This document shows, piece by piece, positions 33,000-47,815 of a DNA stretch of 64,000 nucleotides. A model generated the notes under the pieces. The model did no database searches, was not told the DNA's origin, and saw nothing but the letters and a program-made list of their open reading frames with translations. Origin of the DNA: Candidatus Rifleibacterium amylolyticum (GTDB taxonomy: Bacteria > Muiribacteriota > Ozemobacteria > Ozemobacterales > Ozemobacteraceae); the NCBI GenBank assembly GCA_009917695.1, contig JAACJG010000014.1, forward strand, positions 50,959 through 114,958, written 5' to 3'. Position 1 is the first letter of the stretch. Every line of letters starts with the position of its first letter. The position numbers and the translations under genes are program-made.

Positions 33000-33260
33000 C
33001 TACCTCATCTTTATACACACGCTGAGGCTGTGGAAAATGTGGGATTTATCAATTTCCCAGAGAAGATGTTTTATTGCAATCACATCTGCTACTGAACTCA
33101 TGGGAAGACCTAAGCTTGGCCAACAACCAGTGGCTATTTCATCACCAACTCGTATACTCATAAATGGGTTTGAACCGTGAAGAGAAATCATAGGATCACT
33201 GTCGAAAGAATCAACATAAACTTCAACGCGATACTTTACAGGGAGATGATTTGTGGTCAT
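33000..33260 (-). CDS. hypothetical small protein
   Basis: ORF downstream of the TIR operon on the same strand. AT-rich. No motif. Start uncertain. Confidence 0.3.
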   Translation of the reverse strand: MTTNHLPVKYRVEVYVDSFDSDPMISLHGSNPFMSIRVGDEIATGCWPSLGLPMSSVADVIAIKHLLWEIDKSHIFHSLSVCIKMR

Positions 33261-33383
33261 AACTTTGCTCCAAAAGGTAAAATAGGTGCGATCTAATACC
33301 TTATAACACAAACCTCGTCTTGAAAAAATTTCTCTTAGTACTTACGTAGTTAACTTGCCGGTACCTTGATAGGAAATGCAGTC

Positions 33384-34151
33384 TTAACGTTTGTAAATTT
33401 CATATAAACAATCAAGCGGATGTTTCTTCTTAGCGGTCATAAATCGACGATGCCAGTTAAACAAAGTTTCCTTGCCTATTTCTTTCATTTCTTGCAAATT
33501 AACGTCATATTCAATATTCAGACCGGCTCTATAACCTTCGCTTTCTAAAATCTTGGCTAGTTTTGCTACAGATTTATCCCTGTGCTCAATTGGTGCTTTA
33601 TAACGGATAACTTCAGAAATTGCAATTTCCGAATAAAGCCATGGTGATTTTGTTTTGGTGACAGCGTTCTCAGATGATATTGAGTTTGGTGTATTGAGAA
33701 AACACACACATTCTGTTTGATCAATCAGCTTTGTTAGTGCAGCAATAAGCATCATATGGACATGGCTGGTAGAGCCATTTCTTTTCTGGTAGCAGTATGT
33801 TTCGCTGCCAGGTATGACACAATATTTGTCGTCTATTTGTTTAAGCAAGTCATCGGCGTAGCCCCACACGCAAGAATCCACAAAAAGATTAAGATCAAAT
33901 TTTTGCTTTAACCAGCCGGCCAGGCTTATGGCAAGATCTTTGTCAGCATGAGAGTGTGATAAAAATATGTCTGCATCTACCTGAGGAAACCAGTGCTGCT
34001 GTAAACGGCTACCATCCAAGCGATCTTCCTTTATTAAAAAGGTTTCCAATGATTGTTTAATCATTGTGGAAGTCTGGTTGTAAAGCCTTAAGCCGACATC
34101 ATAATAGGAACCAAAATCGTTCCCCAGCGTTAATTTGAATCTACTAAACAT
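33384..34151 (-). CDS. TIR-domain protein with a ~55-aa N-terminal extension
   Basis: 'DIFLSHSHADKDLAISLAGWLKQKF...SPWLYSEIAISEV'. ATG at 34151 with a GAGGTG RBS. The track GTG start is 12 nt upstream. Confidence 0.75.
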   Translation of the reverse strand: MFSRFKLTLGNDFGSYYDVGLRLYNQTSTMIKQSLETFLIKEDRLDGSRLQQHWFPQVDADIFLSHSHADKDLAISLAGWLKQKFDLNLFVDSCVWGYADDLLKQIDDKYCVIPGSETYCYQKRNGSTSHVHMMLIAALTKLIDQTECVCFLNTPNSISSENAVTKTKSPWLYSEIAISEVIRYKAPIEHRDKSVAKLAKILESEGYRAGLNIEYDVNLQEMKEIGKETLFNWHRRFMTAKKKHPLDCLYEIYKR

Positions 34152-34193
34152 TGAACACCTCACTAAAAAACATAGGAAATATGCGAAGCGGCG

Positions 34194-34784
34194 TTAAAGA
34201 CTGGATAACCACAGTAGAATTTCTTTGAACGGAATTACATATAGCAAAATAAAAACATAAGTAATGAGAAAGAAAATAGCTATTCTGCGTTCCAAATTTG
34301 TTACAGGATGGTAGATTACAGGGTTTTCACCTTTAGCTAAAGCAAACCACTCTGCAGTAAAGAGAGCCAGCGGCAAATGAGTTTCAATCTGTTCAATAAC
34401 TTTGAATTTACCGCAGTTTAACTGCTTATAAGAGTCGATGACACGAGCCCAATAATAACAAATCGCAATGCCAAAAATTGGGAGTATATACGCCATAAAA
34501 CGCAAAGAAATATCTGCGTCCTTGCCATATAAATAGCCTAAAATAGTGAATAACCCGGCGTTAAGAGTTAGGAAAAATGAATTTGCTGATTGTCTTTTTT
34601 CATAAACCTTTTCGGTAGAATCTACCAATAGCTTGTATTGCTCGAGAACGATGGTTATTTCTTCCTTATTGGCAGTAGAACTGTTTTTTTTATTAAAAAG
34701 CTTTGTAGCAAGTAATTCTACTTGAGAACTATCTTGAGCTGGTAAAGGGGCTTTGGCTGCAGGTGCCTGTAACGAATCAGTCAT
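34194..34784 (-). CDS. small three-helix membrane protein (SLATT-like candidate effector)
   Basis: Hydrophobic helices at ~aa 70-85, 95-115 and 165-185 of the 196-aa product. ATG at 34784 with a GAGG RBS, 7 nt after the upstream TIR gene's stop. Confidence 0.65.
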   Translation of the reverse strand: MTDSLQAPAAKAPLPAQDSSQVELLATKLFNKKNSSTANKEEITIVLEQYKLLVDSTEKVYEKRQSANSFFLTLNAGLFTILGYLYGKDADISLRFMAYILPIFGIAICYYWARVIDSYKQLNCGKFKVIEQIETHLPLALFTAEWFALAKGENPVIYHPVTNLERRIAIFFLITYVFILLYVIPFKEILLWLSSL

Positions 34785-34791
34785 AATGGCC

Positions 34792-35208
34792 TCACTTGCA
34801 AAGAGATCTGATACCATCAACAATAGATGAAGCGTTCCAGTGAACTATTTCATCAGCATTGTTCTGAACTACGGTCGAAACTTGTTGATTACCCCAAGGA
34901 ACAACAGCCAAAATAGGCTTTGCAACCAGAAATTCATTTTTGGCAATTTTTATCTCATTGTTTATCCAGGTGCTAAACGTTGCATATTTCCCGGCCATAA
35001 TCACAACAACGTGAACCGCTGCCATCTGCCTGTAAATTGAATCATATAAGGCTTTTGAACTGGGAGCGTTATGGATGGGATCATGCTTTGGGACAGAAAA
35101 ATCCTTGTATGAAAAATAGGGATAACCATCTAGAAGACTGATTAGGCGATTATAGTCGTCACTATATGACCAGGAATGACTGATAAACAGATTGTATGGC
35201 GATGGCAT
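34792..35208 (-). CDS. TIR-like (DUF1863/ThsB-like) protein
   Basis: 'FISHSWSYSDDYNRLISLL...VVVIMAGKYATFSTWINNEIKIAKNEFLVAKPILAVVPW'. GGAGG RBS. Confidence 0.8.
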   Translation of the reverse strand: MPSPYNLFISHSWSYSDDYNRLISLLDGYPYFSYKDFSVPKHDPIHNAPSSKALYDSIYRQMAAVHVVVIMAGKYATFSTWINNEIKIAKNEFLVAKPILAVVPWGNQQVSTVVQNNADEIVHWNASSIVDGIRSLCK

Positions 35209-35388
35209 AGATCCTCCGGTTGATTAATTGTAGTGAAGTCACGTTTATATTTTAAAGATTTTGACATTTTTCAATGCCTCCTGTAAAATATAAGTTGACA
35301 GGTGTCGATATATAGGTTAACATTCTTTCTTTTGTATGTCAACCCCCGGTGGAGGTTACAGTATTCATGCGCTTTATAAGGATTACAT

Positions 35389-35775
35389 ATGCCGATAAAG
35401 AGTATTCAACGAGGGTCATCTTTTGAAATCTGTTGTTGGAAGGAAGTCGGAGGAGAATGCCCGCTTGAAGATTTTTTTAAAGAGCTAAAAGACACTGGAC
35501 ACCAGGACTTGGATCAGATGTTGCGTCTGATTCATAGATCAGCAGAGCTGGAGCCGCCGCGCAACATTGAAATGTCGAGAGCCCTGGAGGGAAAGAATGC
35601 CGAAGGATTGTGGGAATTCAAGGCCGGAGCAATCAGGGTTATGTGGTTTTACGAACGCAACAAGATTATTATCTGCACCCACAGTTTTTTGAAAAAAGGG
35701 CGCAAGACTCCCGCGCCAGAGATAGAAAGAGCCCAAAACACGAGGAGTAAATACTATGCCGAACAAAAACGTTAA
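35389..35775 (+). CDS. HigB-like (Gp49/DUF891, RelE-superfamily) toxin
   Basis: 'GLWEFKAGAIRVMWFYERNKIIICTHSFLKKGRKTP..EIERA' matches the Gp49-like pattern. Confidence 0.75.
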   Translation: MPIKSIQRGSSFEICCWKEVGGECPLEDFFKELKDTGHQDLDQMLRLIHRSAELEPPRNIEMSRALEGKNAEGLWEFKAGAIRVMWFYERNKIIICTHSFLKKGRKTPAPEIERAQNTRSKYYAEQKR

Positions 35776-36181
35776 GGGAATCGAGACCAGCAACTTCTTT
35801 GCGACAATGTTTGCAGAAGCAGAAAGCCGCGACGAGTTTCATGTCGCAGGTGTGAAAATCGAGATTGCCGAACAAATTTACCGGATGATGGAAAAACGAA
35901 ACATAACTCAGTCAGATCTTGCTCGAAAACTTGGAAAGAATCGAGCTTACATTTCCAAGATTCTCAAAGGGACAACCAACTTCACGGTAGAAACTCTTGT
36001 GCTGATAGGTAGAAAACTTGATGCTGAATGGGACTTCCAGCTAACTGACGCCGAGAAACCGGAAAAAAGAGTCTTTTACATGGAATACGGAAGTATCAAA
36101 CCGCCAACAAACAGGGTTTTGGCGGCGAATGACTTTTGCGACGAGATTGGTTGGGAACCAACCGTCAAATGGGGGCAATAA
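35756..36181 (+). CDS. XRE-family HTH antitoxin with a C-terminal extension (candidate chaperone-addiction region)
   Basis: HTH 'ITQSDLARKLGKNRAYISKILKG'. GAGGAG RBS. 20-nt overlap with the toxin. Confidence 0.75.
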   Translation: MPNKNVKGIETSNFFATMFAEAESRDEFHVAGVKIEIAEQIYRMMEKRNITQSDLARKLGKNRAYISKILKGTTNFTVETLVLIGRKLDAEWDFQLTDAEKPEKRVFYMEYGSIKPPTNRVLAANDFCDEIGWEPTVKWGQ

Positions 36182-36184
36182 CAA

Positions 36185-36655
36185 ATGACTCTATCACCTT
36201 TGCAACTCCACCGCTATTTTGCTGAAGAGATATTCTGCAAAGCCAATCCCGACTTTGATAAAGATAAAGAAGTTAAAATAAAAGACTTTCAGGTGTTTTT
36301 TGAAACTGGCGAAGATAAAAACCCGCTTTTGCGCAGGATCAGACTGACTGTTGAACAAACCCTAAGCAAAGACGGCAACGAACCATTTGCTTTCAAGATT
36401 GTTATGGTCGGATTCTTTGAAGTTATGAAAGAATTTTTCGAAAGCCAAGGATCAGAAAAAACAGAACAGCTTGTTAATGTTAACGGTCCGGCTCTGCTGT
36501 ATTCCGCTGCCCGAGAACTATTGGCACTTGTTTCCGGTCGTGGGCCATATGCCGATGATAGCCTGAATGTTTTGCTGCCTTCTATTACTTTTTTGAATTT
36601 CAAGCCAATGAAACCGGTAAAAGAACCTAAACAGGCAAAGACTAAAAAGAAGTAG
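36185..36655 (+). CDS. SecB-like chaperone (third component of a toxin-antitoxin-chaperone module)
   Basis: Alignment to SecB: 'LQLHRYFAEEIFCKANPDF' is similar to 'QIQRIYTKDISFEAPNAP'. 'PALLYSAARELLALVSGRGPY...LPSITFLNF' is similar to '[30 protein letters not shown]'. Confidence 0.7.
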   Translation: MTLSPLQLHRYFAEEIFCKANPDFDKDKEVKIKDFQVFFETGEDKNPLLRRIRLTVEQTLSKDGNEPFAFKIVMVGFFEVMKEFFESQGSEKTEQLVNVNGPALLYSAARELLALVSGRGPYADDSLNVLLPSITFLNFKPMKPVKEPKQAKTKKK

Positions 36656-36664
36656 CTGTTTTGA

Positions 36665-37003
36665 TTAGAACTTGTTTGGAATGCGTTCGGAGCCGAATTT
36701 TACGGCTTCGAATTGGATGTTGTTGGCATAGCCTTTGAAGGCGATCTGGCGAACGAAGGCCGTGAACAGTTCTTTGTCCTGGCATTTGTCGGTCCAGTAG
36801 GTTGATTTTGAGAAGTAGATGTGTTTATCAGGATTCTTCTTTTCAAGACTGAACTTGTCGTCGTTGGCGGCTTTCCAAAATTTACGGCGGGCGGCGAGAA
36901 TGGCGTTGATATCGTCAGCATCGTTATAAAGGCCTGACATGGTATGCTTTTCTTCATATTTGAAGATTATGTATTCGTTCTCGGCATGGGCCATGAAAAA
37001 CAC
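36665..37003 (-). CDS. hypothetical protein, possibly 5'-truncated (the in-frame upstream extension to ~37180 has no start codon)
   Basis: GTG start. The upstream 60 codons are open and protein-like. The 3' end is duplicated at 38594-38699. Confidence 0.45.
   Translation of the reverse strand: MFFMAHAENEYIIFKYEEKHTMSGLYNDADDINAILAARRKFWKAANDDKFSLEKKNPDKHIYFSKSTYWTDKCQDKELFTAFVRQIAFKGYANNIQFEAVKFGSERIPNKF
36669..36774. repeat. ~106-bp direct repeat, copy 1 (copy 2 at 38594-38699, ~91% identical)
   Basis: 'aacttgtttggaatgcgttcggagccgaattttacggcttcgaattggatgttgttggcatagcctttgaaggcgat...'. Confidence 0.7.
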
Positions 37004-37963: not shown

Positions 37964-38233
37964 ATGAAAAGAACACAAATCTATCTGGAAGCGGAACAGC
38001 AGGATTTTCTGGAAAACATGGCCTTTGTCATCGGGAAAAAGAATCGCAAAAAGGTTTCTATTTCTGAATTAATAAGGTCGGCAATAGAATTATTGCGCGA
38101 AAAATATGATTCCAAGCAGCTTGAGGATGAAACAGAACTGATTCTTAAAAGCGAACATCTGATGGCTGGCATTAAAAAAGCCAGAAATGAAAAGAAGCTG
38201 CTTTCTCACGAAGAAGTGTTTGGTAAAAAATGA
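37964..38233 (+). CDS. ribbon-helix-helix (CopG/ParD-like) antitoxin
   Basis: 'MKRTQIYLEAEQQDFLE' RHH N-terminus. ATGA-style overlap with the toxin gene. Confidence 0.7.
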   Translation: MKRTQIYLEAEQQDFLENMAFVIGKKNRKKVSISELIRSAIELLREKYDSKQLEDETELILKSEHLMAGIKKARNEKKLLSHEEVFGKK

Positions 38234-38577
38234 CATTCACCCCGCATTATAAGCCACAGTTCTTCAAAGATGTTAAAACTTACGCTTCGATGAAAAGCCA
38301 GATAGAAAAGAAGGTTAACAGCATTCTGGCAGATCCTTACCACAACACAGAACCGCTGGGAAGCCAAAAAGGTCATGATTTAAGGGGTTTGCGCAGCAAG
38401 CGCGTTGATAAAAACTTCCGTATTATTTTTGCAATCTGTGAGGAATGCAAAGAACTTTTCCCAGAGAAAGATCAGCCCTGTCGCTATTGTGATCCTAATT
38501 TGCCGGCCAAATCAGTCATATTTTTTACAGCCAGGCCACATAAAGTCGTATACAAAGAGAAAAAACCACTTGAATAA
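38230..38577 (+). CDS. RelE/ParE-family toxin with a CxxC...CxxC insertion
   Basis: 'NFRIIFAICEECKELFPEKDQPCRYCD...KVVY'. Coupled to the RHH gene. Confidence 0.65.
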   Translation: MTFTPHYKPQFFKDVKTYASMKSQIEKKVNSILADPYHNTEPLGSQKGHDLRGLRSKRVDKNFRIIFAICEECKELFPEKDQPCRYCDPNLPAKSVIFFTARPHKVVYKEKKPLE

Positions 38578-38593
38578 CGGCTTCGATGATCAA

Positions 38594-38699
38594 AACTTGT
38601 TCGGGATGCGTTCGGAGCCGAATTTTATGGCTTCGAACTGGATGTTGTTGGCGTAGCCTTTGAAGGCGATTTGGCGGACGAAGGCTGTGAACAGTTCTG
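38594..38699. repeat. ~106-bp direct repeat, copy 2
   Basis: ~91% identical to 36669-36774. Confidence 0.7.
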
Positions 38700-38780
38700 T
38701 TTGCCACTGAAAAGGTAATAGTTCGCCTGCTTTTTTCTTGTCTAGAGAACAGTTTAGCCTGAAAATAATGTCAGGACGGT

Positions 38781-38814
38781 ATTTATTCGTTATTCGCGAA
38801 TAGCGAATAAATAC
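38781..38814. promoter_or_regulatory. 34-bp near-perfect palindrome 'tatttattcgttattcgcgaatagcgaataaata' (second operator-like copy)
   Basis: Shares the core ttcgNtattcgcgaatagcg with the site at 37739-37756. Confidence 0.5.
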
Positions 38815-38916
38815 CATGCCAAATTGCTGATCGGGATGAGAAACTGGAAGATATAAAAAATGTAGTTGTCGCGCTGGGCGGGCAAGTTGAAGAAAGCCAT
38901 GACAGCAAGTCTTTCT

Positions 38917-39285
38917 CTAGTTTTGCAGGGGGCCCGGTTCGATTGCCTGGTGGTCCTCAGGTTTGAGATCTTTGTAAACGTCGTGCCACACATCGAATTT
39001 TTCACCGACTTGCCAGCTTTCGACATCAGTTCTACTTTGCAGCCATGAAATAATTCTCTGCAATCGTTCTTCGCAATGCTCCTGCAGACCAAGTTCGACG
39101 ACTATATCAAGCATGTTTTTGCTACCACCGCCACCGCAGCGGCAGTCATTTGCTTCGACTGCTTCCTCTATGAAAGCATCAAGAAATTTATCAAAATGAT
39201 TACTGCAGTTGCGGTAAATGATGATCTGGCGACCCCATTCCGTGAATTCTCCAACATGTTTCTTTTTGCGCATTCTCTTTTTCAT
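38917..39285 (-). CDS. hypothetical protein (122 aa, Cys-containing)
   Basis: Protein-like composition. 'CRCGGGG'. Weak RBS. Confidence 0.4.
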   Translation of the reverse strand: MKKRMRKKKHVGEFTEWGRQIIIYRNCSNHFDKFLDAFIEEAVEANDCRCGGGGSKNMLDIVVELGLQEHCEERLQRIISWLQSRTDVESWQVGEKFDVWHDVYKDLKPEDHQAIEPGPLQN

Positions 39286-39338: not shown

Positions 39339-39749
39339 TCAAGATAAGGCCAGTTCAAACTTTTTCTTATTCTTAATTCGATAGATTGTGAAATCTCGAT
39401 CTATAGTGGCGATCCTGGTGATATTTAACTCTTCGGCCAGATAGACGAGACAAGCGTCTGCAAAATCCATGGGAAGATCTTTGTATTTGATAGTAAGATC
39501 TCTAAGTCTATTAAATGCAGGAACTTCTATATTATGGACTTCGACAGCACCCTTGCTGATCCAATCCAGGAAATCAATTTGCGCATTGCGGTTGAAATCC
39601 AGCAAATGAAGGGTTTCGGTGATTGATGCCAAGGTCGTGACAAGAGGCAGCTTGTTTTCTCTAACAAAGTTCACCGCTTTTTTATGATGTTTGTCATCAG
39701 CATCAAATAACGCTATCAGCGGGCCTGAATCAATCAGAATTTTTTGCAT
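39339..39749 (-). CDS. vapC: PIN-domain toxin VapC
   Basis: 'ILIDSGPLIALFDADDKHH...IATIDRDF' with the PIN acidic residues. Confidence 0.85.
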   Translation of the reverse strand: MQKILIDSGPLIALFDADDKHHKKAVNFVRENKLPLVTTLASITETLHLLDFNRNAQIDFLDWISKGAVEVHNIEVPAFNRLRDLTIKYKDLPMDFADACLVYLAEELNITRIATIDRDFTIYRIKNKKKFELALS

Positions 39750-39987
39750 TTCTTTTGTCCTGGAGCTTTTGCTTCAAAATTGCTTTGCGGTTTTCTGACA
39801 GGTTAGACTTGCCGCTGGAATATTTACCAAAAAGAGATTTGCCGGCAGTCCAGGCATTGTTTTGTTCTAATTGCTTAAAATACGCCCTCAGGCTTTTCCG
39901 GACAATTTCAGATTTAGGAATACCCAACATTTCAGCAATGTTATTCAGCTTTTCTTCCATGTCAGGGCTTAATCGTAAAGTTAACAT
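39730..39987 (-). CDS. vapB: RHH antitoxin VapB
   Basis: 'MLTLRLSPDMEEKLNNIAEMLGIPKSEIVRKSL'. ATG at 39987 with an AGGGGG RBS. Overlaps vapC. Confidence 0.75.
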   Translation of the reverse strand: MLTLRLSPDMEEKLNNIAEMLGIPKSEIVRKSLRAYFKQLEQNNAWTAGKSLFGKYSSGKSNLSENRKAILKQKLQDKRNAKNSD

Positions 39988-40105
39988 TTTCACACCCCCT
40001 GTATTACATATAGTAATACAAATGATTCAAGTCTGCAAGCTGTCTTGGAGGCTTCTGGGGGCCGGTGGGCAGAAATTGGCTGCTGATCATGCCGCCAGGT
40101 GGTAA

Positions 40106-43308: not shown

Positions 43309-46221
43309 TTAGAGAAGTGGTTGTTGCAGCTTTGCCGCCTGCACTGCTTCTGACTGAGGTTCTGAATTAAACTGTTTTTCTGCTGCAGCAATGAACTGAC
43401 GCAGTTCTATTTCAAGCTGAATCAGAATTTCACGGGCAGAATCATTTTGACCACTGACAATGGCCTCTTCAATAGACCGGGCCAGTTTTTCAATGGCACC
43501 CACTCCTAGATTACCCGACACTCCGGCAAGATTGTGGGCGAGTATTCTTGCCTCATCGGTTTGCCCCATTTTCAGGGCATTTTGAATCTTTTCGGTAGTA
43601 TCAGCATGGTTGAGACAGAATTTTTTCAGTACTTTAACCAGCATTGCAATGTTGCCGCCGATTCTTTCGCAACTGGCTTCTGCATCCATTCCGGGGATCT
43701 TTGGCAACTCCTGCACTGCTGCTTGCGCAATCTCGCCAACCGATGTGACGCTCCTGTCTCTATGACTCCACTGGAGGAGCTTGCGAAAAAGCATCTGCGG
43801 GTCAATAGGTTTGGTTATGTAATCGTTCATTCCGGCCTGAAGAGCCTTTTCTCTATCGCCAGACATGGCACCGGCGGTCATGGCTACTATGGGCAGCTGA
43901 CGGTATTTTTCCTGAAGTCTGATGGCTCTGGCGGCAGCGTAACCGTCCATTTCAGGCATCTGCACGTCCATCAGAACGCAGTCGAATTGATTCTTTTCAA
44001 GCATCCGCAGAGCAACCATGCCATTATCTGCAATCTCAACTCTGATTCCGGCTCTGACAAGAAGCTCTGAAGCAAAATCCTGATTGATTTCGTTATCTTC
44101 TACCAGCAGAACACTCAACCCTTTTAGCCCGGCAAGAGTTTCCTGACTGAGGATTTTACGTGAACTGCGCCTGGGAATCGACACGTCTTTGTGGAAAACT
44201 GTTAGAATCGTGTCAAGTAGCGTCGACATGGTAAACGGCATTATCAGCAAAGCTTCTAGTTCACTTCCGATGCTCTTTTCCGCAATTATTTCCTGGCCAA
44301 ATGGAACGACGCTGATAATCGGAACATGTCGGCCACTTTCACAACCTGTCAGTGTTGCTTTTTTAATAGCTTTAATTGCCTCTGATCCGCTGATACCAGG
44401 AAATTTCCAGTCGAGAAAAACCAGATCGAACGGGCGATTGGCACCCCGCGATAATAGACGCTCAGATGCCTCTTCTAAAGACCTGGCGGTTGAAACGGCG
44501 AACGAAAGTGACTGCAATTGGGATCTGAATGCATTCAACGCCGATTCACTATCATCAATAACCAGAACGTTGAGACCTCTGAGGTCGGATGTAGGATACA
44601 ACGGTTGACGATCTGCTGCTACAGGCAGTTTTACGGTAATGCTGAAAGCGCTGCCATGATTAAGAGCCGACTCCATTTTAATTTCACCATTCATTGCATC
44701 AATGAGGCGCTTGCAGATTGCCAACCCAAGACCGGTTCCACCGAAACGTCTGGTGATTGAGCTGTCAGCCTGAGTAAACGGATTGAAAATTTTCTGCTGC
44801 TGCTCTTCGGTCATGCCGATGCCAGTGTCGCGGACGGTAAATCGCAACCAGGCAAGATTATCTTCGCGTTTGACAACTTCTGATGAAATGACGATTTCGC
44901 CGGAAGGCGTGTATTTAACAGCATTGTTGGCAAGATTGATCAGGATCTGTTCAAGTCTGAGCGGGTCGCCGATAAGCCTTGCCGGAACGTCAGGTGCGGT
45001 CAAAAACACAACTTCGAGCCCTTTTTCCTGCGCCTTTCCGGTAATAAGATCAGAAAGCTGATCGAGAATATCATCGAGATCGAACTCGATATTTTCAAGA
45101 GTGATTTTTCCTGCTTCAGCCTTGGAAAAGTCGAGAATTTCGTTAATTATACCGAGAAGGTTGTCGGCCGCAACCGTGATTTTTTTCAGATAGCCGCTCT
45201 GGCGTGGAGTCAGTTCGGTCTGCTGGCATAGATAGGCAAGCCCAACGATCGCATTCATCGGTGTTCTAATCTCATGACTCATGTTGGCGAGAAACTGCCC
45301 CTTGACCTCTGTTGCTGCTTCAGCGGTATTCTTTGCATCCTGAAGAGCTTTTTCCATCTCTTTGCGGGTGGTGATGTCCTGTTGTATCGCCATGAAATGC
45401 GTAACTTTTTTCTGATTGTTCAAAACCGGTGATATAGAGGAATCGACCCAGAATATCTCACCATTCTTACGACGGTTGCAGAATTCACCTTTCCAGGTTT
45501 TACCAGAAGCGACAACGGACCAGAGATTGCCGGCCAGGTTAGGCGATTGCTCACAACCTCTGAGAAACCTTGGATTCCTGCCAAGAGCATCTTCTCTGGA
45601 ATAGCCGGTAATCTCTGAAAAACTGTCATTAACATATTCAATCTGACCATTGAGATCGGTTATGATAACCATGATCGGGCTTTGCTCTACAACCTGCGAA
45701 AGCTGCCTGATTTTCTCTCTGGCTTCTCTGCTGGCGGTTATGTTCTCACACACACCAAGCATTCGGAATGGAGCATTATGTTCCTCGCGATACACCTGCC
45801 CCTTTGCCCTCAAATACAGCACCTGGTCATCTTTTCGCCTGATTCTGAATTCAGCTTCAAAAGGGGCGCGGCCTTCCATTGCTGCAAGGGTAGCACTTTC
45901 AAACACCGGTAGATCTTCGGTCAGAATCCGACCGCGAAAACTCTCGCGCGTACCCTCAAAAGTTCCTGGCTGCATGCCAAAAATCTGGTACATGCCTTCA
46001 TCCCATATCATTTTGCCATCAGTCAGCGAAAGATCCCATATTCCGATTCCTGATGAAAGCAGGGCCAGAGCTAGTCTATCCTGGTTTTCCTTGAGGTCGA
46101 GCTCAGCTTTTTTGCGACCTTCGATAGCATTGTGAAGTCGACGGTTGGCGCGATAAAAGATCACGAGAACGATCAGGTCAACAACAAGTATAAGAAAAAA
46201 AAGCTTAATAATGCCTTCCAT
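43309..46221 (-). CDS. hybrid sensor histidine kinase / response regulator (transmembrane anchor, PAS x2-3, HisKA, HATPase_c, two receivers, HPt)
   Basis: H-box 'MSHEIRTPMNAIVGLAYL', 'GGTGLGLAICKRLIDAM', receivers 'DCVLMDVQMPEMDG', HPt 'HNLAGVSGNLG'. Confidence 0.85.
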   Translation of the reverse strand: MEGIIKLFFLILVVDLIVLVIFYRANRRLHNAIEGRKKAELDLKENQDRLALALLSSGIGIWDLSLTDGKMIWDEGMYQIFGMQPGTFEGTRESFRGRILTEDLPVFESATLAAMEGRAPFEAEFRIRRKDDQVLYLRAKGQVYREEHNAPFRMLGVCENITASREAREKIRQLSQVVEQSPIMVIITDLNGQIEYVNDSFSEITGYSREDALGRNPRFLRGCEQSPNLAGNLWSVVASGKTWKGEFCNRRKNGEIFWVDSSISPVLNNQKKVTHFMAIQQDITTRKEMEKALQDAKNTAEAATEVKGQFLANMSHEIRTPMNAIVGLAYLCQQTELTPRQSGYLKKITVAADNLLGIINEILDFSKAEAGKITLENIEFDLDDILDQLSDLITGKAQEKGLEVVFLTAPDVPARLIGDPLRLEQILINLANNAVKYTPSGEIVISSEVVKREDNLAWLRFTVRDTGIGMTEEQQQKIFNPFTQADSSITRRFGGTGLGLAICKRLIDAMNGEIKMESALNHGSAFSITVKLPVAADRQPLYPTSDLRGLNVLVIDDSESALNAFRSQLQSLSFAVSTARSLEEASERLLSRGANRPFDLVFLDWKFPGISGSEAIKAIKKATLTGCESGRHVPIISVVPFGQEIIAEKSIGSELEALLIMPFTMSTLLDTILTVFHKDVSIPRRSSRKILSQETLAGLKGLSVLLVEDNEINQDFASELLVRAGIRVEIADNGMVALRMLEKNQFDCVLMDVQMPEMDGYAAARAIRLQEKYRQLPIVAMTAGAMSGDREKALQAGMNDYITKPIDPQMLFRKLLQWSHRDRSVTSVGEIAQAAVQELPKIPGMDAEASCERIGGNIAMLVKVLKKFCLNHADTTEKIQNALKMGQTDEARILAHNLAGVSGNLGVGAIEKLARSIEEAIVSGQNDSAREILIQLEIELRQFIAAAEKQFNSEPQSEAVQAAKLQQPLL

Positions 46222-46238
46222 TTATGTCACCAGCTTTC

Positions 46239-47249
46239 TCAGGAGATGTATGCGAGCTTTGTCGGGCCTTTGCCCTTCAGATCAACCTCACCCCGGTCGA
46301 CTACATTGAACTGGCCCTGCAACAGATTCAAAGTGTTGTCTGAAACGCATACCCGCATGGGTTCGCTGGCCGTCTGGACTCTGGAAGCAAGATTTACGGT
46401 ATCGCCAAAAACATCATACTGGAACTTTGTAAACCCGACTATTCCGGCTACAACCGGCCCGGAATTGATGCCTATGCGAACCTCCCACTGATGGACGCAA
46501 CCCGCGTTACGCTGGCGCAGAAACGCTATAAATTCAAGACCACATCTGGCAAGTCTGATTGCGTGATCCTGCGAAACCTCCGGCATGCCACAGACACCAA
46601 GATAGGCGTCGCCAATCGTCTTTATACGCTGGGCACCGTTCTTCAGAAGAATGTCGTCGAAGGCAGAGAAAATCTCGGTTAACTCATTCAACAGTGTCTT
46701 TGGCGCAATAGTGGCTGACAAACTGGTAAAATTCACCATATCTGAAAAAAGAACACTGACATCGTCATATTGCTGAGGGGTTGAGATCCCTGTATTCTTG
46801 AGTTCGTCGATTACTTTCTGCGGCAGAATGTTTGCCAGCAGACTCTCACTGCGCTGTCTTGCCCGGACCAGTTCGATGTGGGCACCGACCCGCGCTTTAA
46901 CTACTGCCGGTTTGAATGGTTTGGTGATAAAATCAACCGCGCCTCCTGCCAGTCCTTTTATCTCGTCTTCAGGCTGATTGAGAGATGTCAGAAAAATAAC
47001 AGGAATCAGGCTGGTTTCAGGGTTGGATTTAAGTCTCTGACAGACTTCGAAGCCATTCATTCCCGGCATGCATATATCGAGAAGAATGAGTTCGGGACGG
47101 GGAAGATGTTGCGCGATTGCCAGTGCTTCTTCACCGTTTCTAGCTGTCTGCACCGTATATTTACCTTCGAGCAGACCAGAAATGAAGTCGAGATTTTCGT
47201 CTGAATCATCGACTGCGAGAATAATCGGCCGAGAAGCAACAAAATGCAT
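46239..47249 (-). CDS. response regulator with a class III adenylate/guanylate cyclase output domain
   Basis: Receiver 'ILAVDD...LDICMPGMNG'. Cyclase 'FSDMVNFTSL...IKTIGDAYL'. AGAGGGGG RBS before the internal ATG. Confidence 0.8.
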   Translation of the reverse strand: MHFVASRPIILAVDDSDENLDFISGLLEGKYTVQTARNGEEALAIAQHLPRPELILLDICMPGMNGFEVCQRLKSNPETSLIPVIFLTSLNQPEDEIKGLAGGAVDFITKPFKPAVVKARVGAHIELVRARQRSESLLANILPQKVIDELKNTGISTPQQYDDVSVLFSDMVNFTSLSATIAPKTLLNELTEIFSAFDDILLKNGAQRIKTIGDAYLGVCGMPEVSQDHAIRLARCGLEFIAFLRQRNAGCVHQWEVRIGINSGPVVAGIVGFTKFQYDVFGDTVNLASRVQTASEPMRVCVSDNTLNLLQGQFNVVDRGEVDLKGKGPTKLAYIS

Positions 47250-47815
47250 TGTAAGCCCCCTCTTGCGATCCGTTATTGTTTTGTCTGCTTTAATTATCCC
47301 ATATTTTTGTCTGCGTCTCAAGTTGTCGCCTGAACACTTATGTACAGCAGAAGTTCAAAAATTACTGATGGAGGGAACTTTTTGTTAGCGGATAATAGCC
47401 TGATGCAGGCTTGCCATAGCGGCTTTCAGCTGATCCTTTTCGCTGGCAGGACTGAGCCTGAGGCCATCATGCTGTTCAACTACCGGCGTAATCGGAGCCA
47501 GATCACCAGCAATTTTCTAATATTTGTTTAACATGATTTAATGCCATACTATTCTTCAAGGATGTGCAGATGTCTTCATATAATCATCAAGTTCAGCGCG
47601 TTCTCTGAAAATCTGTATCTCTCGCCTGAAGTTCTGTATCACTGTTCGATCCTGATTTTTTTTGCACATTTTGCAGCGTCCCTGGCCGCAACAGGAGTCA
47701 GACTGGTTAAAAACAAGTTGTAGATTACGACAATTAAGGCTTTTCGCATTGTTGCTCCTGCTGATTTTGCTTCTGTATCTGACAAATCATTGTCCGGCTG
47801 GCATCAGGAAATAAT

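Follow-up and report, generated by a model that had tools for sequence, protein, structure and literature searches.

A 64,000-nucleotide (nt) stretch of the Candidatus Rifleibacterium amylolyticum contig JAACJG010000014.1, hereafter called the window, contains three adjacent genes, g1, g2, and g3, which probably form an anti-phage system of the Thoeris family. In the proposed system, a three-helix membrane protein of the 8xMP/RipA family (g2) would serve as the effector, and two ThsB-type TIR proteins (g1 and g3) would serve as the sensors. Thoeris systems are the bacterial counterpart of TIR immune signaling in plants and animals and consist of a signal-producing TIR protein and an effector. 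So far, each newly described effector type has brought to light a signaling molecule that was either new or shared. As judged from the sequences, the triad is a genuine Thoeris variant that probably functions; its effector has been catalogued so far as a prediction, and the system is not categorically new. An earlier note on this DNA had proposed an undescribed system; this has to be withdrawn, since a type with a '3TM' effector, to which the triad corresponds, was already predicted by Yirmiya et al. (bioRxiv 10.64898/2025.12.03.692087).

The proteins encoded by g1 and g3 are assigned to two different clades of ThsB-type TIRs, and the predicted catalytic glutamate is intact in both. The earlier note had described a ThsB-like TIR in g1 and a second, divergent TIR behind an N-terminal extension of ~55 amino acids (aa) in g3, and searches with profile hidden Markov models (HMMs) agree with both descriptions. 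g1 matches the Pfam family ThsB_TIR (PF08937) with an E-value of 1.5e-14 and a score of 54.6 bits (cutoff 21.2), and the PADLOC ThsB profile PDLC00418 with an E-value of 2.2e-9. For comparison with other TIRs, we used the TIR domains of Table S1 of Yirmiya et al. (bioRxiv 10.64898/2025.12.03.692087). The best matches of g1 in this set are entries labeled with a '3TM' effector, several of which are 51–56% identical to it, and the identity is 49% to the type IV ThsB of E. coli 328 and 45% to the type VII ThsB of Pseudohongiella. Relatives of g1 make N7-cADPR or canonical cADPR (cADPR, cyclic ADP-ribose). The catalytic residue of g1 is E85, which occupies an invariant column and is aligned with the glutamate in the KWEI motif of PsTIR and with that of B. 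cereus ThsB. Mutation of the equivalent catalytic glutamate of PsTIR (E79Q) abolishes defence.

g3 matches the PADLOC ThsB profile PDLC00430 with an E-value of 2.5e-81, and its match to Pfam TIR_2 (3.8e-5) is under the cutoff and begins at residue 62. Therefore, the TIR core is located behind an N-terminal extension of ~55–60 aa. Over the full length, g3 shares 47% identity with the type IX ThsB of B. cereus VD021 and 43% with the type V ThsB of B. thuringiensis DAR 81934, both of which make 3'cADPR on infection. All of the invariant columns in the alignment of its clade (52 of 52) are retained in g3, including SHSH and E175. The latter residue is an invariant column in the SPW..EI motif of this clade, and we infer that it is the equivalent of the catalytic glutamate of PsTIR.

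g2 encodes a small membrane protein, and its sole significant Pfam match is to 8xMP (PF24838; 8.3e-37, 126.5 bits, cutoff 30), covering positions 1–135 of the 136 in the profile. All of the homologues found carry PF24838, and RefSeq names homologues "RipA family octameric membrane protein"; the family name in PF24838 and RefSeq is the only source for the octameric state. A polar N-terminal region of ~68 aa precedes three hydrophobic segments (residues 69–87, 97–116, and 168–186), whose mean Kyte-Doolittle values are 1.27 (by hand calculation), ~1.6–1.8, and 2.65. Only segments 2 and 3 exceed 1.5, and all three segments are long helices in the AlphaFold 2 (AF2) prediction. The hydropathy and the model are thus in line with the original description of a soluble N-terminal segment and three hydrophobic helices. 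A conserved N-terminal helix runs into segment 1, and a conserved loop of 50 aa lies between segments 2 and 3. All invariant residues of the 8xMP family are retained in g2. The suggested resemblance to SLATT effectors was not upheld, because g2 has no SLATT match in Pfam at E≤1. At the same threshold, DUF2270 (PF10028) and Macro matches were also absent, and PADLOC and NCBIfam gave no match to g2.

With 4288 clusters at 50% identity, the 8xMP family is a large one, and our literature and structure searches found no solved structure or relevant paper on 8xMP, PF24838, or RipA-family octameric proteins. One of the literature matches concerned the octameric pore Csx28, which is absent from the top matches of both structure searches. 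No homology of g2 to DUF2270/ThsF could be demonstrated, with an hhalign probability of 3% between the 8xMP and ThsF-like alignments and no cross-HMM matches. The two families do have a common layout of a helix, transmembrane segments TM1 and TM2, a cytoplasmic loop, and TM3. At the junction of the amphipathic N-terminal helix and TM1, a short motif reads R-R-x-S-A-N-S-F-F in 8xMP and R-M-x-x-N-S-F in ThsF-like proteins; this similarity is non-significant.

The association of g2 with TIR genes extends far beyond the window. We surveyed the neighborhoods of 8xMP genes using one genome per species, which gave 80 loci, 75 of them with a readable upstream region. In 32 of these 75 informative loci, the 8xMP gene is immediately preceded by a ThsB-type TIR gene in the same orientation, and the two usually abut or overlap. 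The taxa include Bacillota, Desulfobacterales, Flavobacteriaceae, Anaerolineae, Nitrospirae, Planctomycetota, Patescibacteria, and others. Two upstream TIR genes are present at seven of the 8xMP loci, and one locus (L053) has the TIR-8xMP-TIR order of the window. In a library representative of 299 aa (P0154), a ThsB-type TIR (residues 6–119) and a full 8xMP domain (residues 158–293) are fused in frame; the fusion may be genuine or may result from a frameshift artefact in the contig of origin.

The same loci connect the 8xMP family with the '3TM' class of Yirmiya et al., in which about 100 TIRs of Table S1 have a putative '3TM' effector (bioRxiv 10.64898/2025.12.03.692087). In locus L010, the TIR encoded just upstream of the 8xMP gene matches the '3TM' entry ga0209542_10000011137 at 100% identity across 130 aa. 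The '3TM' class therefore appears to be, at least in part, the 8xMP family, as is shown directly for this one entry. The TIRs of three other loci (L008, L011, and L018) are 91–94% matches to another '3TM' entry.

The triad is also conserved as a unit in close relatives. Its orthologues in loci L081–L086 show 73–91% aa identity, and the gene order and the 7-nt gap between g1 and g2 are unchanged. The outer flanks of these loci differ and include IS21 with a BglII-type restriction-modification pair, a Tn3 transposase, AbiEii, and a type IV Thoeris pair. The ratio of nonsynonymous to synonymous substitution rates (dN/dS) against the window is 0.03–0.46 over the triad, at dS up to ~1.3. The individual ranges are 0.03–0.06 for g1 (aa identity 90–91%), 0.17–0.46 for g2, and 0.20–0.33 for g3 (dS 0.4–1.0, aa identity 73–79%). 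We conclude from these ratios that all three genes are maintained by purifying selection, and the triad is co-inherited. Co-occurrence of the homologues, which the earlier note had put forward as a check, is thus observed both in the TIR-8xMP adjacency across taxa and in the preserved triad. In one of the orthologous loci (L085, 90% identity), a type IV Thoeris pair composed of a 138-aa ThsB_TIR and a Peptidase_C14 caspase-like protein is located directly downstream of the triad (L085:6519–7892). An AbiEii gene is also nearby, and the locus has the appearance of a stacked Thoeris defence island.

What the effector might be replaced with was seen from the side of g3. Among 80 metagenomic loci with a g3-like ThsB gene, 61 have a ThsF-like membrane protein gene immediately downstream of it. 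These proteins (~130–160 aa) belong to one family, one member of which weakly matches DUF2270. An 8xMP neighbor occurs only in L086, which is of the same lineage as the window. Locus L087 (L087:2355–4768) has two stretches in common with the window, a Gp49-like module with 79% DNA identity and the 3' two-thirds of g3 with 74%. The genes enclosed by them are TIR-TIR-ThsF-like (the last of 151 aa) instead of g1 and the 8xMP gene, and the breakpoint of DNA homology lies inside g3 at approximately window position 34016. Because a ThsF-like effector fills the same slot in L087, the 8xMP protein is regarded as sitting in a type V-like effector slot, and this is the best available evidence for its putative effector role. 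L087 provides a natural control with the same frame and a ThsF-like effector.

The comparison with L087 shows a cassette exchange by which g3 came beside the 8xMP gene. Therefore, another explanation stays alive, in which g1 and g2 are the working pair and g3 is left over from a type V-like (ThsB+ThsF) cassette in which recombination has put another effector in place of the original one. In that case, g3 would signal to nothing here or to an effector elsewhere in the genome, or it would be a stand-alone NADase. The predominance of ThsF-like genes downstream of g3-like ThsBs, the single locus with an 8xMP neighbor, the breakpoint in g3 together with the replacement of the effector cassette, and the faster evolution of g3 relative to g1 are all in its favor. 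However, g3 has kept every invariant residue of its clade, is under purifying selection, and retains its position and spacing across five or more different contexts. Moreover, the 64-kb window contains no ThsF-like gene, second 8xMP gene, or other TIR gene, and multi-ThsB operons around one effector are common. We consider it unlikely, if worth serious attention, that g3 is such a leftover, and we prefer the reading in which both ThsB proteins serve g2.

The mechanism proposed for this two-sensor system is as follows. Phage infection would activate g1, g3, or both, and the active TIR would convert NAD+ to a signal derived from ADP-ribose. The signal would bind to the cytoplasmic face of an oligomeric ring of g2. 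This face would consist of the conserved N-terminal helix and the 50-aa loop that connects helix 2 to helix 3, in which the residues R64, K126, E134, E145/W146, Y158, and E165 are invariant. The ring would then permeabilise or depolarise the membrane, and growth would be halted before phage progeny are released. Oligomeric membrane effectors are present in the validated Thoeris types II, V, VI, VII, and X. With two ThsBs, more kinds of phage would most likely be sensed, as in other Thoeris loci with several ThsBs. Multi-ThsB operons around a single effector are common in the family, and multiple TIR proteins in one Thoeris locus have been interpreted in the literature as sensors for different phages. 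Of the two arrangements in the original hypothesis, two ThsB sensors feeding one membrane effector is the best reading, while a sensor with an amplifier is unsupported. Our first guess for the signal is 3'cADPR, because the clade of g3 makes this molecule elsewhere and g2 replaces a ThsF-like effector beside a g3-like gene.

The roles of the proteins could also be reversed. The TIRs would then be NAD+-depleting effectors, and g2 would be a sensor or an anchor, responding for example to phage-induced envelope damage, with no diffusible signal. Many bacterial TIRs indeed act as NADase effectors, as in CBASS, Pycsar, prokaryotic Argonaute (pAgo), and AVAST systems, and 8xMP proteins exist without TIR partners, so killing need not be their primary role. 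However, both TIRs are 43–49% identical to ThsBs which, expressed alone, make signals only on infection, and neither has an extra sensor-coupling domain. In addition, the place of g2 is taken in L087 by a member of a known effector class (ThsF-like). Reversed roles are therefore very improbable in our judgment, and g2 is retained as the putative effector.

Several points weigh against the defence system proposed here. The '3TM' type is a genome-survey prediction only (bioRxiv 10.64898/2025.12.03.692087), and a TIR-8xMP system is purely predicted. The structural model of g2 is an AF2 monomer with a predicted local distance difference test (pLDDT) score of 76, and both the ligand pocket and the oligomer lie beyond it. 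Scans for promoters and terminators gave counts without an excess over chance for the region. The most interesting of these points is the mismatch of signals between the ThsB clades, namely 3'cADPR in the clade of g3 and N7-cADPR or canonical cADPR in the relatives of g1. Convergence of both clades on one effector is hypothetical. It is conceivable, but we rate it as distinctly doubtful, that the 8xMP ring is a ligand-gated effector fed by two ThsB clades, either through recognition of multiple signals or through a TIR signal not yet described. If so, the members of the TIR-less branch of 8xMP (Patescibacteria and Francisella RipA) would be nucleotide- or ligand-gated membrane rings as well.

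Further points on the same side come from the 8xMP family itself. Approximately 43 of the 75 8xMP genes, mostly from Patescibacteria (in L012–L080), have no TIR neighbor. They are flanked by heterogeneous housekeeping genes, for example those for Mur ligase, BacA, RmuC, DNA alkylation repair, and PIF1 helicase, and a conserved non-TIR partner was ruled out on account of this heterogeneity. TIR-linked and TIR-less 8xMPs fall into separate sub-clusters with the same invariant residues throughout. Because TIR-less members are common and share all invariant residues, 8xMP is no dedicated family of Thoeris effectors, and it may have a basal role outside defence. RipA, the namesake of the family, is an inner-membrane protein of Francisella that is needed for intracellular growth; it is a virulence factor and is not known to act in defence. 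On these grounds, g2 might be a RipA-like housekeeping protein of the envelope, with the TIRs as unrelated neighbors in the island or as regulators of membrane physiology, and the locus would be no defence system. The overlapping or 7-nt-spaced adjacency of TIR and 8xMP genes across phyla speaks against this explanation, as do the TIR-8xMP fusion protein and the separate sub-clusters of TIR-linked 8xMPs. The setting does so too, because the operon lies in a mobile island of low GC content and its orthologues stand beside restriction-modification, AbiEii, type IV Thoeris, and toxin-antitoxin genes. We regard it as barely credible. If the defence reading fails nevertheless, the locus is one more entry among the predicted defence operons.

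The preprint of December 2025 lists 29 putative Thoeris types, 11 of which have been validated, and '3TM' is not among the latter (bioRxiv 10.64898/2025.12.03.692087). The window contains a ThsB-type TIR in an operon, a catalytic glutamate, and a partner gene that recurs beside TIR genes across taxa, as expected for Thoeris. g1 agrees with the putative TIR+3TM type (Fig. 1C and Table S1 of the preprint), and g2 agrees with the PF24838 profile. Like the loci of that type, the window has a short ThsB of clusters 2734565194/2556961318 next to a small protein having three transmembrane segments. However, the preprint treats those loci as two-gene operons and gives their effector no family name, whereas the window effector is PF24838. 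The window also adds a second ThsB after the effector; in other loci, ThsBs of its clade are paired with DUF2270-type effectors. The triad is thus catalogued as the putative '3TM' type, while this type is missing from PADLOC-DB v2.0.0.

Among the validated systems, type V (ThsB and ThsF/DUF2270; the B. thuringiensis DAR 81934 system signals by 3'cADPR) is similar in that ThsF is a small protein with three membrane helices, like g2. ThsF has been modeled as a ring-shaped homo-oligomer, whereas g2 is known here from its sequence and the monomer model. Unlike type V, the window has an effector with no detectable homology to DUF2270/ThsF, and g1 comes from a different clade than the type V ThsB; a ThsF-like gene was not found in the 64-kb window. 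In types VII (SLATT, canonical cADPR) and II (Macro-TM, His-ADPR), a signal made by the TIR opens a membrane-disrupting oligomer, and the same logic is proposed for the window. However, g2 has neither a SLATT nor a Macro domain, and its soluble part consists of the N-terminal helix and the 50-aa loop only. In type IV, the TIR is combined with a caspase-like protease and N7-cADPR is the signal, whereas the operon of the window contains no Peptidase_C14 gene and its effector is a membrane protein. SIR2 and SLOG domains, which would indicate type I, were found by Pfam and PADLOC searches in none of the three proteins nor in the downstream 103-aa open reading frame (ORF). The operon also contains no CD-NTase, cyclic nucleotide monophosphate (cNMP) cyclase, or Argonaute/APAZ gene, as in CBASS, Pycsar, and short pAgo-TIR systems, respectively. 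The earlier statement that the locus does not fit canonical Thoeris I/II, CBASS, Pycsar, or pAgo architectures therefore stands. The sole cyclase in the window is a response-regulator fusion (46239..47321), 11 kb away among host signaling genes. These genes (43309–47321, minus strand) encode a hybrid PAS histidine kinase with receiver and Hpt domains (970 aa) and the response-regulator-guanylate/adenylate cyclase fusion (360 aa). They are located outside the island, 9–11 kb from the operon, with no sign of linkage to it.

TIR-8xMP is one of the predicted Thoeris types, and the window provides a compact three-gene example with its native regulatory sequence. Since it contains two ThsBs whose relatives make different signals, the specificity of the effector can be addressed directly. 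It also gives a first functional hypothesis for the large 8xMP family, which has more than 4000 clusters at 50% identity.

The ORF listing confirmed the three co-directional genes on the minus strand, with gaps of 7 nt between g1 and g2 and 42 nt between g2 and g3. The maximal ORF of g2 starts at TTG 34823, and that of g3 starts at an in-frame GTG at 34163; the coordinates in Table 1 refer to the ATG codons. Shine-Dalgarno-like motifs are located 4–5 nt before each ATG (GGAGG at 4 nt for g1, GAGG for g2, and GAGGTG for g3). Because the GAGG motif of g2 overlaps the stop codon of g1, the sequence suggests translational coupling of the two genes. The intergenic region upstream of g1 contains sigma-70-like hexamers on both strands, TTTAAA-18-TACAAT on the minus strand (35256..35227) and TTGACA-17-TAAAAT on the plus strand (35261..35289). 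No terminator-like site was found after g3 in the terminator scan. A 103-aa ORF on the 3' side of g3 (33000..33311) was considered as a fourth gene and rejected; it has no family matches and, among the triad orthologues, is present only in the identical contig L002.

Table 1. Positions of the operon and of the neighboring features in the window.
Feature	Position	Strand	Description
g1	34792..35208	-	138 aa; short ThsB-type TIR, putative phage sensor and signal-producing enzyme
g2	34194..34784	-	196 aa from ATG; 8xMP (PF24838) membrane protein, putative signal-activated effector
g3	33384..34151	-	255 aa from ATG; long ThsB-type TIR, second putative sensor/signal producer
g1/Gp49-like intergenic region	35209..35388	.	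Divergent; probable operon promoter region, by position
Gp49/HigB-like toxin, HTH_3 antitoxin, and 156-aa protein	35389-36655	+	128 aa, 141 aa, and 156 aa; divergent from the operon
Further island cargo	37964-38577	+	Weak RHH antitoxin and YoeB/HigB-like toxin pair
Further island cargo	38917-39285	-	YggL-like 50S-binding protein
Further island cargo	39339-39993	-	PIN toxin and RHH antitoxin (VapBC-type)

The operon was originally described as more AT-rich than its flanks. This is correct for the left flank, where the GC content is 0.55–0.65, compared with 0.36–0.40 across positions 33000–35500. It is not correct for the right flank, which is also AT-rich until ~40.5 kb. Therefore, the operon is part of a low-GC island of ~7.5 kb and not an isolated dip. 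The island is bordered by host genes, with a hydrogenase-like PAS protein and a SpoIIE phosphatase on the left and DoxX and a pyridine-nucleotide oxidoreductase on the right. The toxin-antitoxin genes that had been noticed in this region were identified as Gp49 with HTH, RHH with YoeB/HigB-like, and PIN with RHH pairs.

The Gp49-HTH-156aa module is found with the triad in all close relatives (L002 and L081–L087), with 70–99% identity, and is missing from distant TIR-8xMP loci. It was considered as a component of the system and, because it is restricted to the close lineage, is treated as a co-inherited neighbor. Its 156-aa protein has no family match. By eye it looked SecB-like, which would suggest a toxin-antitoxin-chaperone (TAC) module, and this assignment is unsupported by Pfam and by sequence searches of the PDB. 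Elsewhere in the island, two minus-strand ORFs (36665..37003 and 38590..38817) have nearly identical last 35 residues (ELFTAFVRQIAFKGYANNIQFEA[V/I]KFGSERIPNKF). These near-identical ends (36665–36770 and 38590–38695, minus strand) imply a direct repeat of ~100 nt, 1.9 kb apart, which brackets a 172-aa ORF and the RHH/YoeB-like pair.

The g2 sequence has exact matches on record in metagenome-assembled genomes of Candidatus Rifleibacterium. All records of this sequence are from Candidatus Rifleibacterium except contig L002 (CAZIVH010000042.1), which is binned as 'uncultured Candidatus Peribacteria'. In this contig, g2 and the 103-aa ORF are 100% identical in aa sequence to those of the window, and the TAC-like module is 96–99% identical. 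The conflict of taxa reflects either mis-binning or a very recent transfer.

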